Shown here one piece after another: positions 13,999 through 51,870 of a stretch of DNA of 64,000 nucleotides. The translations under genes were made by a program, and so were the position numbers. Location: positions 22,646 through 86,645 of the forward strand of contig CAMDWG010000010.1 of assembly GCA_945878375.1 (NCBI GenBank), in the 5' to 3' direction. The notes below the pieces were generated by a model. The model was not told where the DNA came from, made no database searches, and saw nothing but the letters and a program-made list of their open reading frames with translations. This DNA is from Roseomonas mucosa. Its GTDB lineage: Bacteria > Pseudomonadota > Alphaproteobacteria > Acetobacterales > Acetobacteraceae. Position 1 is the first letter of the stretch. Every line of letters begins with the position of its first letter.

Positions 13999-15138
13999 AT
14001 GAACGAGGCCCTCGCCCCCTTCCAGCGACTCGAGCATCAGCGCGTCCTGTTCCCGGACGGTCTCGCGCTCGATTGCGGGGCCGTGGTGGCCCCCCTCGCG
14101 GTCGCCTATCGCGCCTATGGCACGCTGAACGCGGCGAAATCCAACGCCGTGCTGATCTGCCACGCCCTGACCGGCGACCAGTATGTGGCAGAACCGCACC
14201 CGCTGACCGGCAAGCCCGGCTGGTGGGACACCGTGGTGGGGCCGGGCCGGCCGATCGACACCGACCGCTACTTCGTCATCTGCGCCAATGTGCTGGGGGG
14301 CTGCATGGGTTCCTCGGGCCCGGCGGAACCGAAGCCGGATGGCAGCGGGCTGTGGGGCACGGATTTTCCCTCCGTCACCATCCGCGACATGGTGCGCGCG
14401 CAGAAGCGGCTGGTGGAGCATCTCGGCATCGACCGGCTGATGGCGGTCGTCGGCGGCAGCATGGGCGGCATGCAGGTGCTGGAATGGGCCGCGACCTATC
14501 CGGAGATGGTGGTCGCCGCCGCCCCCATCGCCACCGCGACCTATCATTCGGCGCAGAACATCGCCTTCCATGAGGTCGGCCGCGCCGCCATCCATGGCGA
14601 TCCGGACTGGATGGGCGGGCGCTACTGGCAAGATGGCCGCATCCCGGCCAAGGGCCTTTCGGTCGCGCGCATGGTCGCGCACATCACCTATCTGTCCGAA
14701 GCCGCGCTGGGCCGGAAATTCGGCCGCCGCCTGCGGGGCGCGAGCGCGCTGACCTTCCTGGAAGACGTGTTCGAGGTGGAAAGCTACCTGCGCTACCAGG
14801 GCTCCACCTTCGTCCGCCGCTTCGACGCCAACAGCTACCTGACCATCACGCGGGCGATGGATTTCTTCGACCTCGCGGCCGAGCATGGCGGCGATGTCGC
14901 GGCCGCCTTCCGCGGCGCGAAGACGCGCTTCCTGGTGGCGTCCTTCAACTCCGACTGGCTGTTCCCGACGCAGGAAAGCCGCGCGCTGGTCCGCGCCCTG
15001 AACGCGGCGGCGGCGAATGTGAGCTTCGTCGAGATCGCGACCGACAAGGGCCACGACGCCTTCCTGCTGGATGAACCTGTCTTCCACCGCGCGCTGGGCG
15101 GCTTCCTGCGCGGCGCGGCGCAGAAAGTGGGCGTGTGA
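13999..15138 (+). CDS. metX: Homoserine O-acyltransferase
   Basis: [16 protein letters not shown] nucleophile motif, RFDANSY, GHDAFL motifs. Confidence 0.93.
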
Positions 15139-15779
15139 TGCCCGACGCCCCGACGGAAATCCGCTTCGTCGCGAAGAATATGCGGCTCGACCTCCGCCTG
15201 ATCGCGGAGATGATCGCGCCCGATGCGCGCGTGCTCGACATCGGCTGCGGCGATGGCGCGCTGATCGACCACCTGATCCGCGCGAAGGGCGCCGATGCGC
15301 GCGGCATCGAGATCGACATGGCAGAGGCGACGGAAGCCGTCGCCGCGGGCCTGCCGGTGATCCATGGCGATGCCGATGCGGACCTGGCTTTCTATCCGGA
15401 CGGCGCCTTCGACTATGTCGTGCTGTCGCGCACGCTGCAGGCGGTGGAACGGCCGCGCGAGGTGCTGCGGCAGATGCTGCGGATCGGGCGCTACGCCATC
15501 GTGTCCTTCCCGAATTTCGGCCATTGGCACCTCCGCTGGCGGCTGCTGACCACCGGGCGGATGCCCGACAACGAGACCTGGGATCGCCCCTGGTACGAGA
15601 CGCCGAACATCCACCCCTGCACGATCCGCGATTTCTTCGCGCTCTGCGCCAAGGATGGCTATGTGGTCGAACGCTGGCTGGCGGTGGACGACAAGGGCCT
15701 CAGCACGCCCTGGAAGCGCTCGCCCTGGCTGGCCAATCTGTTCGGCGAACAGGGGCTGTTCCTGCTGCGGCGGGGCTAG
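15138..15779 (+). CDS. metW: Methionine biosynthesis protein MetW
   Basis: VLDIGCGDG, FDYVVLSRTLQ, SFPNFGHW, ETPNIH motifs; overlaps metX stop. Confidence 0.92.
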   Translation: MPDAPTEIRFVAKNMRLDLRLIAEMIAPDARVLDIGCGDGALIDHLIRAKGADARGIEIDMAEATEAVAAGLPVIHGDADADLAFYPDGAFDYVVLSRTLQAVERPREVLRQMLRIGRYAIVSFPNFGHWHLRWRLLTTGRMPDNETWDRPWYETPNIHPCTIRDFFALCAKDGYVVERWLAVDDKGLSTPWKRSPWLANLFGEQGLFLLRRG

Positions 15780-15807
15780 GCCCTTTCCCGGTCCCACCGG
15801 CGCGCCT

Positions 15808-15990
15808 TCAATGCATGCGACGCTGCGCCGGCGGTGTGCCGGGGACCAGGGCTGCCGCCAGGGCGACATGGGCGGCGGCGGCTTCCGCGCCCAGCCGACG
15901 GCATTCCGCTTCGACATAGGCCAGCATCAGCAGCAGCGCCGCATCGTCGTCCGGCTTGGGGGGGGCGGTCATCTCGGTATCGGCGCGCAT
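15808..15990 (-). CDS. Small hypothetical protein (~60 aa)
   Basis: Helical core LLLMLAYVEAECRRLGAEAAAAHVALAAAL; fills a gap without overlapping other genes. Confidence 0.5.
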   Translation of the reverse strand: MRADTEMTAPPKPDDDAALLLMLAYVEAECRRLGAEAAAAHVALAAALVPGTPPAQRRMH

Positions 15991-16140
15991 GACTATTCCA
16001 TTCCGTAAGGCGGGGCGCCGCAGGCGGCGCGAGGGCAGGACGCTTCGCATGCGGGTCACGTCGGCGTGAAGACGCAATCGCTCGGGTCGAGATTCAACCA
16101 GGAATTGGCTTCGCCCGATCAGGCTGCCGGGCGGCCGCCC

Positions 16141-16231
16141 AAAAGAAACCCCGGCGGGAAGGCCCGCCAGGGGAAAGTCGAGGGAGGAAACGTCCAGGAA
16201 CGTCCTCGGGGCGGCTTCCCACCCCGGGACG
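16141..16231 (-). ncRNA. Candidate trans-acting sRNA, MmgR/alpha-r8(suhB)-like, ~90 nt
   Basis: 5' hairpin GTCC-CGGGGTGG/CCGCCCCG-A-GGAC, core TTTCCTCCCT (16181-16190), terminator CCCC-T-GGCGGG/CCCGCC-GGGG + TTTCTTTT; no minus-strand CDS upstream to explain the terminator. Confidence 0.75.
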
Positions 16232-16237
16232 ATCACA

Positions 16238-16279
16238 AGACTAGGCGCGACCGCGCCGACCCGCCTTGATCCAGATCAA
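16238..16279 (-). promoter_or_regulatory. FNR/FixK-type class II promoter for the sRNA
   Basis: Perfect TTGAT-N4-ATCAA at 16266-16279; -10 TAGTCT at 16243-16238 gives +1 at 16231 with the box centred at -41.5. Confidence 0.75.
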
Positions 16280-49047: not shown

Positions 49048-50829
49048 TCAGGCGCGGGTGAAGACCAAGCGCTCCGGCGCCATGAAGCCGAGGGTGAGCA
49101 AAGCCTGCAACCCGGGGGCAAGGCCCAGCGGCCCATGGACCTCCAGCCGGCCGTCGCGCGGCCGGACGAGGGGACGGAGCAGCGCGACGGCGATCCGGTG
49201 CACCTCCCGCGCCTTGGCGACGGCCAAAGGGGCCATCGGCACCCCCGCATCGGCCGCCAGCACCACGGCCCCGGCGGCGCGGGCAATCCTCGCGACGCCC
49301 TCTGCCTCCGCCAGCGGATCCACCCGCGCGCCTTCCAACATGAGCGCCGGTGCGGTGCCGGGGGCGGAGGCGCCGATGCCGTCCAGCAGGCCCGGCAGGG
49401 CCCTGGCGGCAGCGGCTGCATCGGTCCAGGTCGCGGCCCTTGCGAGCGCCAGGATGCCCAGCGCGCGGGCGCCGAGATCGGCCGGTTCGGCCTCCAGCGC
49501 GCGGGCCAGCCGCAGGGCGAGGGCCGGCAGCGCATCCTCCCCGGGCCGCCGCGCCCGGCGCAGCGAATCGGCGCCGAGCAGGGCGGAGGCAAGCTCCGCC
49601 ACACCCCCCAGCGCCGAGAGAAGCGCGAGCTGATCCTCGGCGAAGGCCAGCAGCGTGGCGCGGCGGGGGGCGGGCAGGGGCTCGGCCCAGGCGCCCCCGG
49701 CATCGAACAGCAGCGCCGCCGCCACGGCGCGCAGACCCGCCCCCGGATCGGGGCGCGGATCGGGAACAAGGCCGGGCGGCAGGCCGGCTTCCATCATGGC
49801 GGCGACGGTCTCCACCTGGCCCGGCGTCAGCAACCGGTCCTCCCGCACCACCAGCGTCTGGCCGGCGGCAAGGTCCACCGGGCCATTGCGGAGGATCAGC
49901 CAATGCAACTCCCCGCCCCGCATGGCCTGGGCGGTGACGGACAGGACGCGCGCGGGGTCATGCGGGCGGATATGCACGGCCGGCGCGCCATCCGGCCAAC
50001 CGGCCGCGCCAATCGCCAGATGCGCCACCGGCATGCCGCGAGCCCATCTCTCGGCGCCTGGGGCCGCGGGCGGGGCCGCATCGCGCCAGGCGCCGGCCTC
50101 CATCATCCGCGCCGCGGTGCCGCCGGGGCCGTCCTCCGCCACGGCATCGAGCGCCGTGGTGACCCGCAGCCGCGACAGCGCGCGGGCGGCGGTGAAGCGG
50201 ATCTCGACGCGCAGCAACGGGCTCAAGGGGTCGATCTCATAGCGATAGGCGATCCGCCCGGCCTCCACCTCCCGCGCGGTGAAGAGGCCGGCGAGGCCGC
50301 GGATCGTGCCGGCATGGGTCAGGACGATGCGCCCATCCTCCCGCGTCACGGAGGCCTCGGTGATGTTGTCCTCGACATCGACGCAGGCGGGGCGGCGGCC
50401 GATGCGGAACTCCACCAGATTGCCGGTGTGGCGCAGTGCCGGCCGGCCGCCCCCTGGAGGTTCCTGCCGCAGCACGCCGGCGCGGAGGTCGCCGGTGAAG
50501 CGGTGATGCGGCGTGCGGATCAGCAGGTCGGCAGGATCGTCGCGGAGCAGTTCGGCCGCGCCGCCGACGGCGCGCATCCCACCAGGCGCCCGCGCAAGAG
50601 CCATCACCGCGTCAAGCAGGGAATCAGACAGCGGTGCATGCGCGTCCCGCAGGCCGGGCAGCATCAGCAATTCAGCGGCGGTCGCGGTGGCGACGACGGG
50701 GAAGAAGGCGCTGCCCTCGGCCTCGGGCAGGGCGCGGAAGCTCTGGCCCGCCAGGGCGATCTCCGTCGCCATCAGCGCCAGGGGCGCAACGAGCCGGTCG
50801 CGATCGGCGTCCTGCAGAAGATTTCGCAT
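49048..50829 (-). CDS. Large hypothetical protein (593 aa)
   Basis: Long ORF filling the gap with ATG start; no family recognised. Confidence 0.7.
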   Translation of the reverse strand: MRNLLQDADRDRLVAPLALMATEIALAGQSFRALPEAEGSAFFPVVATATAAELLMLPGLRDAHAPLSDSLLDAVMALARAPGGMRAVGGAAELLRDDPADLLIRTPHHRFTGDLRAGVLRQEPPGGGRPALRHTGNLVEFRIGRRPACVDVEDNITEASVTREDGRIVLTHAGTIRGLAGLFTAREVEAGRIAYRYEIDPLSPLLRVEIRFTAARALSRLRVTTALDAVAEDGPGGTAARMMEAGAWRDAAPPAAPGAERWARGMPVAHLAIGAAGWPDGAPAVHIRPHDPARVLSVTAQAMRGGELHWLILRNGPVDLAAGQTLVVREDRLLTPGQVETVAAMMEAGLPPGLVPDPRPDPGAGLRAVAAALLFDAGGAWAEPLPAPRRATLLAFAEDQLALLSALGGVAELASALLGADSLRRARRPGEDALPALALRLARALEAEPADLGARALGILALARAATWTDAAAAARALPGLLDGIGASAPGTAPALMLEGARVDPLAEAEGVARIARAAGAVVLAADAGVPMAPLAVAKAREVHRIAVALLRPLVRPRDGRLEVHGPLGLAPGLQALLTLGFMAPERLVFTRA

Positions 50830-50961
50830 GGGAACGGAACATAGGATCGCGACCGCGTGACGGGAAGCGGCGGGGAGGTTGCCTGCCTGCCGACAGCGGC
50901 ACGAAAGCCCTCCGCAATGGCTGTCGGAGGCTTCACTGGCAGGTCACGGCGGCGTGAGAGG

Positions 50962-51077
50962 CGTCCGGGCAAGATGCTTCTCGTCCAGGCGATGCCTCGA
51001 CGTTTTCTCCCGGCGGTTCCGTGCGATGATGTGCGGAGCCTACTTTCCCCGGTGCCTCGCGGCACCGGGGATTTTTT
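50962..51077 (+). ncRNA. Candidate sRNA paralogous to 16141-16231
   Basis: Shared core AGGN-N3-NCCT-SGACGTTTYCTCCC and ACTTTCCCC; terminator CCCCGGTGCC/GGCACCGGGG + ATTTTTT on the plus strand where flanking genes are minus. Confidence 0.7.
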
Positions 51078-51105
51078 CATGGTCGCCGGAGGCAACCGCC
51101 GGGCA

Positions 51106-51813
51106 TCACACCCGGCCGGCGGCCTTGTCGGCCTCGTAGCGGGCCTTGGTCTCGGCATTGGCGGGGTAGAGGCCCGGCAGGGCGAGGCCCTTGCCCACCT
51201 CGTTCATGATCCAGCCTTCCAGACGCTCCTGCTCCACCGCGGCTTCCGTCACGGCGTCGAGCATCGCGGCGGGGATCACCACCGCGCCGTCGCCATCGGC
51301 CACCACGATGTCGCCCGGCACGACGGTGACGCCGCCGCAGCCGATCGTCTCCTGCCAGCCGACGAAGTTCAGCGCGGCGACCGAGGCCGGCGCCACATAG
51401 CCCTGGCAGAACACCGGCAGGCCGGTGCCGATCACGCCCTGCCCGTCGCGCACCATGCCGTCGGTGACGAGGCCGGCGACGCCCTTCACCCGCATCCGCG
51501 CGCAGAGGATGTCGCCGAAGATGCCGGCGGTGGTCAGGCCCATCGCATCGGCGATGGCGACGCAGCCTTCCGGCATGTCCTCGATCGCGGCGCGGGTGGA
51601 GCGGGGGGAGGACCAGCTATCGACCGTCGCCAGGTCCTCCCGCGTCGGGGTGAAGCGCAGCGTGAAGGCCGGGCCGACGATGCGGGTGAAGTTGCCCGGC
51701 ACGATGGGCCGCGCGCCGTTCACATAGGCGAAGCGCACGCCCTTCTTCAGCAGCACCGTGGTCAGGGTCGCGGTGGTCACGTCCATCAGGGCTGCCTTGG
51801 TGGCGGGGTTCAT
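51106..51813 (-). CDS. RraA-like / HMG aldolase family protein
   Basis: GPAFTLRF, GIFGDIL, DGMVRD, GDIVVADGDG motifs. Confidence 0.85.
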   Translation of the reverse strand: MNPATKAALMDVTTATLTTVLLKKGVRFAYVNGARPIVPGNFTRIVGPAFTLRFTPTREDLATVDSWSSPRSTRAAIEDMPEGCVAIADAMGLTTAGIFGDILCARMRVKGVAGLVTDGMVRDGQGVIGTGLPVFCQGYVAPASVAALNFVGWQETIGCGGVTVVPGDIVVADGDGAVVIPAAMLDAVTEAAVEQERLEGWIMNEVGKGLALPGLYPANAETKARYEADKAAGRV

Positions 51814-51870
51814 GCGTGTCGCTCCGAGCGGGAAATGCGACACGCTTGAAACGCCGCCCGCCCCAGGCCG

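Follow-up and report, generated by a model that had tools for sequence, protein, structure and literature searches.

The window, the 64,000-nucleotide stretch of DNA analysed here, probably contains at ~50982-51077 (+) a putative gene for an independent, trans-acting small RNA (sRNA) of ~95 nt, which we interpret as a diverged, three-hairpin sibling of the alphaR8 sRNAs (MmgR/SuhB/SisA-D). The analysis supports a predicted sRNA gene that is conserved, carries its own terminator, and is related to the first sRNA of the window, an alphaR8/MmgR-family RNA. What is new is the three-hairpin variant missed by the Rfam model, its altered seed, and a conserved TCACG-N4-CGTGA dyad; several alphaR8 siblings with unrelated promoters in one genome are known already from Caulobacter (PMC12559287). 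The three-hairpin RNA is a previously unlisted, well-conserved addition to the alphaR8/MmgR family with a changed architecture, one that the current Rfam model misses. It does not overturn the current understanding of the family and is a solid, unsurprising addition to it.

On the plus strand, positions 50932-51077 comprise, from 5' to 3', the TTCAC element, the dyad, a -10-like box, hairpin 1, the seed, hairpin 2, the linker UACUU, and the terminator. These features, the neighboring genes, and the first sRNA are as follows.

16134-16219 (-): first sRNA, alphaR8/MmgR-family, beside phbB; RF00519 43.1 bits against a cut-off of 41
49048-50829 (-): gene for a 593-aa protein, divergent neighbor
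50932-50936 (+): TTCAC element (TTCAY in orthologues), of presumed function
50944-50957 (no strand): dyad TCACG-N4-CGTGA, exact sequence TCACGGCGGCGTGA, putative transcription-factor operator
50970-50975 (+): -10-like box CAAGAT, aligned with (T/C)AGATT of the orthologues
50982-51002 (+): hairpin 1 (CGUC.AGGC GAU GCCU.GACG), in the minimum-energy and consensus folds
51003-51014 (+): seed UUUUCUCCCGGC, C/U-rich, single-stranded, anti-Shine-Dalgarno; unpaired in the minimum-energy and consensus folds
51015-51040 (+): hairpin 2, 26 nt with 9 pairs, a module absent from canonical alphaR8 RNAs
51041-51045 (+): linker UACUU; ACUU or CACUU kept across orthologues
51046-51077 (+): Rho-independent terminator, 11-bp G+C-rich stem (51046-51071) and T6 tail, found by a terminator scan
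51106-51843 (-): RraA-like/aldolase-family gene (Pfam RraA-like, NCBIfam PRK08245), convergent neighbor, not part of the RNA

Conservation and secondary structure of the three-hairpin RNA

BLAST and a covariance model (R1), built from an alignment of 21 species (A1), were applied to 29 Falsiroseomonas genomes. The three-hairpin RNA was present in exactly one copy in 21 of them, with carriers from lake and soil, and was not found by BLAST and R1 in the remaining eight, which are 88-100% complete. The genome that holds the window is itself an assembly from a freshwater lake, and among cultured carriers F. stagni DSM 19981, F. bella CQN31, and F. algicola PeD5 have an exact match to a 22-mer of the RNA. 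Orthologues were also identified in three further Acetobacteraceae genera within a 150-genome sample of the family. The original prediction had raised the concern that the shared sequence might be a dispersed repeat. We checked this by searching the RNA's own genome with R1 and rejected it, because there was a single strong match of 99 bits and all others scored at most 32 bits.

The consensus structure was computed with RNAalifold from the 21-species alignment and contains three hairpins with the seed unpaired. The claim of an extra hairpin at 51015-51040 was borne out, as hairpin 2 appears in both the minimum-energy and the consensus fold. Overall, 94.1% of the alignment cells were paired, compared with 87.4% in shuffles (0 of 500 reached the observed value) and 35-43% with slid partners. 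Cells in which both sides had changed numbered 37, compared with 10.6 +/- 2.8 in shuffles (0 of 500) and at most 15 with slid partners, and such changes fell on 10 pairs, compared with 6.7 in shuffles (12 of 500) and at most 6 with slid partners. Compensatory changes support hairpin 2 (three pairs) and the terminator (seven pairs). Hairpin 2 is 96.8% paired, its three pairs with both sides changed including replacements of CAC/GUG by CCC/GGG or CGC/GCG, and it is longer in the outgroup genera; in the terminator, both sides have changed across species at 7 of 10 pairs. Hairpin 1 is 98% paired in the 21 species and nearly invariant, so that covariation neither supports nor contradicts it. Around the seed, 19 of the 21 species share one and the same 23-mer, GCCUCGACGUUUUCUCCCGGCGG, and the remaining two have one extra U. 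The ACUU of the linker has a counterpart in the RF00519 consensus, where gACUU stands before the terminator. For the 97-nt stretch at this locus, the folding energy is -51.6 kcal/mol, with a z-score of -5.25 relative to shuffles.

Relationship to the first sRNA and to the alphaR8 family

The likeness on which the original prediction was built, between two RNAs 35 kb apart on the same contig, was confirmed. Positions 50987-51011 match the first sRNA (16206-16182, -) at 19 of 25 nt of the core, ACUUUCCCC leads into a CCCCGG-type terminator in both RNAs, and when the 5' 40 nt of the two sRNAs were aligned locally, 1 of 2000 shuffles equalled the score. In a global alignment with the first sRNA, hairpin 2 shows up as an insertion of 27 nt that separates CUCCC from ACUUUCCCC. 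Other parts of the proposed likeness stood only in part. The switch of stem pair 4 from A-T to C-G, which had been read as covariation, is literally present but is a single event between two paralogues, and in the minimum-energy fold of the first sRNA AGGACG sits in a longer 5' hairpin instead. The shared ACTTTCCCC does occur exactly twice in the window, once per sRNA (0.24 expected; two or more in 5 of 100 shuffles), but only its ACUU is conserved, the rest being covarying terminator stem. CGTCC(C)GGG does start 25 nt before the core in both sRNAs, but CGTCCGGG is kept in none of the 20 orthologues and belongs to the promoter, before the point where transcription probably begins. The first sRNA also differs from the three-hairpin RNA in lacking hairpin 2, in having the canonical 10-mer, a long 5' hairpin and a class II FNR/FixK box (a perfect FNR box, TTGATCCAGATCAA, at 16266-16279), and in passing RF00519.

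We searched the genome with RF00519 and found three matches above the cut-off, one of them the first sRNA, and several weaker ones. The others are listed below.

C5:206060-206134 (+): canonical alphaR8 copy, RF00519 45 bits, 134 nt from the sole FGase gene
C12:49437-49515 (-): third match above the cut-off, 43 bits
C10:4725-4807 (-): weaker candidate
C25:38295-38376 (+): weaker candidate
C2:275919-275995 (+): weaker candidate

Since each of the 29 genus genomes has two to six RF00519 matches, the family is multi-copy here, and the proposed two-member family gives way to three matches above the cut-off, weaker ones, and the three-hairpin variant. The genome may contain six or more such RNAs. 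The weaker candidates have the C/U-rich stretches GCCUCCCU, UCCUCCCC, and CCUUCCUC, which are followed by terminators. FGase linkage is the signature of the primary alphaR8 copy (PMC12559287), and the only FGase gene of the genome lies at C5:206268-206957, next to the canonical copy and not at the locus of the three-hairpin RNA.

Several lines of comparison connect the three-hairpin RNA to this family. The 13-mer GACGTTTYCTCCC (GACGUUUYCUCCC) occurs exactly three times in the 3.86-Mb genome, in the three-hairpin RNA, the first sRNA, and the canonical copy, and its reversed control gave zero matches without mismatch. The second-best match of R1 in its own genome was the canonical alphaR8 copy (31.8 bits), and in an 82-kb search R1 detected the first sRNA (22.7 bits, E 0.0018) with hairpin 2 exactly deleted, an alignment that agrees with the one in the original prediction. 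For the 10-mer the comparison is mixed. In published alphaR8 RNAs, UUUCCUCCCU is internal, single-stranded, and located after a weak hairpin (PMC12559287); in the three-hairpin RNA an unpaired stretch does come after hairpin 1, but it reads UUUUCUCCCG, with agreement at 8 of 10 positions. In the outgroup orthologues the 10-mer is UCUCCUCCCG, with the CCUCCC core intact, and their CCUUGGACGUCUCCUCCC is identical to the canonical UCUUGGACGUUUCCUCCC at 16 of 18 positions; judged by sequence, they bridge the Falsiroseomonas form of the seed to the alphaR8 family. The most likely placement of the three-hairpin RNA is as a diverged alphaR8 sibling (family RF00519).

Like MmgR of S. meliloti, SuhB of Sphingopyxis granuli, and SisA-D of Caulobacter crescentus, it is found in an alphaproteobacterial host with multiple siblings at separate loci under unrelated promoters, and it has a 5' hairpin, an unpaired CGUUUYCUCCC stretch, ACUU, and a Rho-independent terminator of the alphaR8 kind, with its 11-bp stem and T6 tail on the plus strand. 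Unlike the two-hairpin, ~75- to 80-nt alphaR8 RNAs, it has three hairpins in ~95 nt, with the additional 26-nt hairpin between seed and terminator; it carries UUUUCUCCCG and not UUUCCUCCCU, falls below the Rfam cut-off, and is not beside an FGase gene.

These differences leave room for an sRNA of a separate Acetobacteraceae family whose C/U-rich anti-Shine-Dalgarno seed and standard terminator came about by convergence, an explanation that we consider unlikely. RF00519 gave no score for the three-hairpin RNA, with zero matches in window positions 50800-51200 even at E up to 10 (gathering cut-off 41 bits), and the three-hairpin architecture would also fit a separate origin. The top Rfam similarity of the region was the betaproteobacterial anti-hemB RNA (RF02837), which scored 28.7 bits (cut-off 49.5). 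Anti-hemB (Burkholderia RNA 7) shares with the three-hairpin RNA a C/U-rich motif of the UCUCCUCCCU type, a hairpin in the middle, and a terminator. It differs in being betaproteobacterial, in holding the motif in a hairpin loop, and in being defined as antisense to hemB. C/U-rich anti-Shine-Dalgarno seeds arose more than once, and the resemblance to anti-hemB is most likely convergent. The RF00519 matches on two orthologues were sub-threshold (37.3 and 31.7 bits) and left out the seed, aligning hairpin 2 and the terminator, which suits a separate family; they were rejected as proof of membership. Against a separate family, the likeness to alphaR8 RNAs extends beyond the CCUCCC core to YUGGACGU upstream and ACUU before the terminator, the models match in both directions, and a -10 box of the TAGATTGT type also precedes the canonical alphaR8 copies.

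The same sub-threshold alignments bear on how an alphaR8 sibling could have gained its third hairpin. It might be a fusion of tandem alphaR8 genes in which the upstream hairpin and seed and the downstream hairpin and terminator were kept and the downstream seed was lost. Adjacent alphaR8 copies are known in some genera (PMC12559287), and RF00519 aligned hairpin 2, GACUU, and the terminator of the two orthologues to a whole alphaR8 RNA, which weakly suggests a tandem-fusion origin. However, these matches arose only in two species whose hairpin 2 has GCCC/GGGC, not the commoner CGCAC/GUGCG, the terminator contributed much of the score, and a tandem pair was absent at the syntenic site in five genomes without the RNA. 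We regard the fusion as improbable. Insertion of hairpin 2 into an alphaR8-type RNA would be the likelier origin.

Genomic setting and extent of the gene

The genes flanking the three-hairpin RNA, that for the 593-aa protein and the RraA-like/aldolase-family gene, are both on the minus strand. The observation that a plus-strand terminator (stem 51046-51071, T6 tail) lies between two minus-strand genes was reproduced, and a T tail was absent from the minus strand of the terminator. A leader or riboswitch was ruled out because both flanking genes are on the minus strand and none lies downstream on the plus strand. A small protein gene was also rejected: the ATG of the RNA's own genome is not conserved, and 1- to 3-nt indels in loops and linker break every frame.

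The RraA-like gene lies downstream of and convergent to the sRNA in 16 of the 21 species, across a gap of 29 nt to >500 nt, and is not adjacent in the other 5 or at the outgroup loci. In five genomes without the RNA, no degenerate copy was found beside the RraA-like gene. The RraA-like protein is 82-99% identical in amino acids across the genus, compared with ~75-89% for the adjoining intergenic DNA. Searches of Pfam and NCBIfam found no family for the 593-aa neighbor protein.

RNA-library contigs from relatives (n = 3) each extend over promoter, sRNA, and RraA-like gene without strand or end information, and because they span all three, strand, ends, and level cannot be read from them. That there is no separate RNA gene, and that the sequence is instead the 3' sequence of the RraA-like gene (an antisense or 3'-UTR element with a shared hairpin terminator) or a DNA-level regulatory sequence, is highly improbable: the prevalent convergent arrangement, the continuation of the RNA-library contigs through the sRNA into the RraA-like gene, and the palindromic terminator stem (R1 scores the minus strand at 27.7 bits) would allow it, but only the plus strand has a T tail, the distance to the RraA-like gene differs widely and adjacency is lost in five species and at the outgroup loci, promoter-like elements are conserved on the plus strand ahead of the RNA, and the covariation fits a three-hairpin RNA with an unpaired, invariant seed.

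The start at 50962 given in the original prediction was revised, the 5' end being probably at ~50982. Since the -10 box is weak and a consensus sigma-70 scan found no promoter at the locus, we can only infer this end, at ~50982-50983.

Promoter region and the conserved dyad

We examined the region upstream of hairpin 1 in the orthologues. The TTCAC element is kept in the 21 Falsiroseomonas orthologues, and TTCAT or TTCAC is found in two of the three outgroup genera. The weak CAAGAT box of the window's own genome aligns with TAGATTGTA in most orthologues. The spacing between TTCAY and the AGATTGTA box is fixed at 34 nt, also in promoters whose dyad is displaced by 6-7 nt. TTCAC-N6-KTCAC presumably resembles the direct repeats of OmpR-type response regulators, such as CreB.

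The dyad is present with at most one mismatch in 24 of 24 orthologous promoters, and its N4 spacer is free to vary. Because its mismatches break pairing and are uncompensated, it reads as a DNA site and not as an RNA stem, and this pattern points to a site that would be bound by a protein. The distance from the center of the dyad to hairpin 1 is 31-32 nt within the genus and 25 nt in the other genera. Its overlap with the -35/spacer region and its displacement by 6-7 nt from genus to genus would suit a repressor operator more than a class II activator, for which phasing is strict. As a conserved site, the dyad offers a direct way to search for a new regulator.

In agreement with the original prediction, no FNR box (at most two mismatches) was found near the three-hairpin RNA. 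The proposal that sibling sRNAs use one seed under different input signals was upheld for the promoter motif, by the missing FNR box and the conserved TCACG-N4-CGTGA dyad, but not for the seed, which differs at 2 of 10 positions (UUUUCUCCCG versus UUUCCUCCCU). Three promoter motifs are distinguished: the TCACG-N4-CGTGA dyad of the three-hairpin RNA, the FNR box of the first sRNA, and a TGC...GCA dyad of the canonical copy. In the promoter of the canonical copy there is a TGCTGCAnTGCAAAA motif, which three other genera also retain. We take this motif to be reminiscent of the S. meliloti mmgR promoter dyad (AniA/NtrC control).

The suggestion of an undescribed type of circuit had to be withdrawn, as one core under different promoters has been published for alphaR8 in the Caulobacter SisA-D system (PMC12559287). 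There, the siblings occupy separate loci with unrelated promoters and show distinct expression, and the same has been noted for many genera (PMC12559287).

Proposed mode of action and predicted targets

We propose that a putative dimeric regulator would bind the dyad overlapping the -35/spacer region and so set the timing of RNA synthesis, with transcription expected to start ~7 nt after the (T/C)AGATT-type -10 box. With Hfq, UUUUCUCCCGGC would pair with GGGAGA/GGGAGG ribosome-binding sites, and translation would be blocked. SisA and SuhB use the 10-mer to base-pair with ribosome-binding sites (PMC12559287; 10.64898/2025.12.09.693200), Hfq-assisted pairing to such sites is expected for the three-hairpin RNA as for alphaR8 RNAs (PMC12559287, PMC8401924), and by this analogy Hfq-assisted pairing of UUUUCUCCCGGC would most likely be its action. 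An hfq gene is present at C2:288215-288403. The C-to-U change in the seed should still permit G-U pairing with GGGAGG, and the GGCGG extension may add specificity, so that the set of targets would overlap that of the canonical siblings and would not be identical to it.

Duplex energies were calculated against ~36,000 candidate starts and were dominated by G+C-rich noise. Seed-complementary matches of at least 9 nt just upstream of start codons were found for an SBP_bac_5 protein, a TctC receptor, NuoB (11 nt), and a molybdopterin oxidoreductase. These four predicted target sites are within chance expectation and serve as leads only.

Three siblings in one small genome, under three promoter motifs and with slightly different seeds, offer a clean natural experiment. 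The siblings can test redundancy versus division of targets, the question left by the Caulobacter SisA-D paper.

Occurrence of the dyad across the genome

The dyad occurs in 11 copies genome-wide, 8 of them outside a crude coding mask, compared with means of 6.1 copies and 2.1 outside the mask for 60 composition-matched palindromes. This enrichment is suggestive, not decisive. The sites include the tctC-tctBA gap, positions upstream of another tctC and of the gene for an RTX-repeat protein, and a position upstream of a divergent Crp/Fnr-family gene.

In alphaproteobacteria, the alphaR8/MmgR family regulates carbon storage and the use of carbon sources. Tentatively, the three-hairpin RNA and the dyad might together make a regulator-sRNA module of Acetobacteraceae that has not been described before, governed by an uncharacterised dimeric factor (one candidate being the Crp/Fnr protein with the EHANR helix). 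The same dyad marks tripartite tricarboxylate transporter loci. Together with the FNR-box sibling and the FGase-linked copy, it would make up a three-input hub with overlapping ribosome-binding-site targets in carbon uptake and storage. We hold this scheme to be doubtful.

The Crp/Fnr-family regulator (278 aa, C28:22006-22842, -) has the recognition helix VEHANR, compared with ETVSR in FixK2, and 36 nt separate the start of its gene from an upstream dyad, TTCACGCAATCGTGAG. The regulator is found in 27 of 28 genus genomes, 75-90% identical, with or without the sRNA. It was rejected as the dyad binder: the dyad is present at its gene only here and in the nearest relative, not at the 25 other loci, and a link is unsupported because the dyad there is not kept and the gene is near-universal in the genus.

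Further dyads were observed within the window. A second exact dyad, TCACGTCGGCGTGA, is located at 16056-16069, ~70 nt downstream of the terminator of the first sRNA and ~140 nt upstream of a 360-aa ORF (14835-15917, -) for which a Pfam search found no family. One and the same factor might act near both siblings, through the dyads at 16056-16069 and 50944-50957. A near-dyad with one mismatch, TCGCGACCGCGTGA, lies at 50847-50860, 18-31 nt upstream of the start of the 593-aa gene. Another palindrome, CATCG-N4-CGATG, occurs 68 times in the genome, 26 of these outside the crude coding mask, compared with a composition-matched mean of 6; its excess could come from codon usage or from another binding site.
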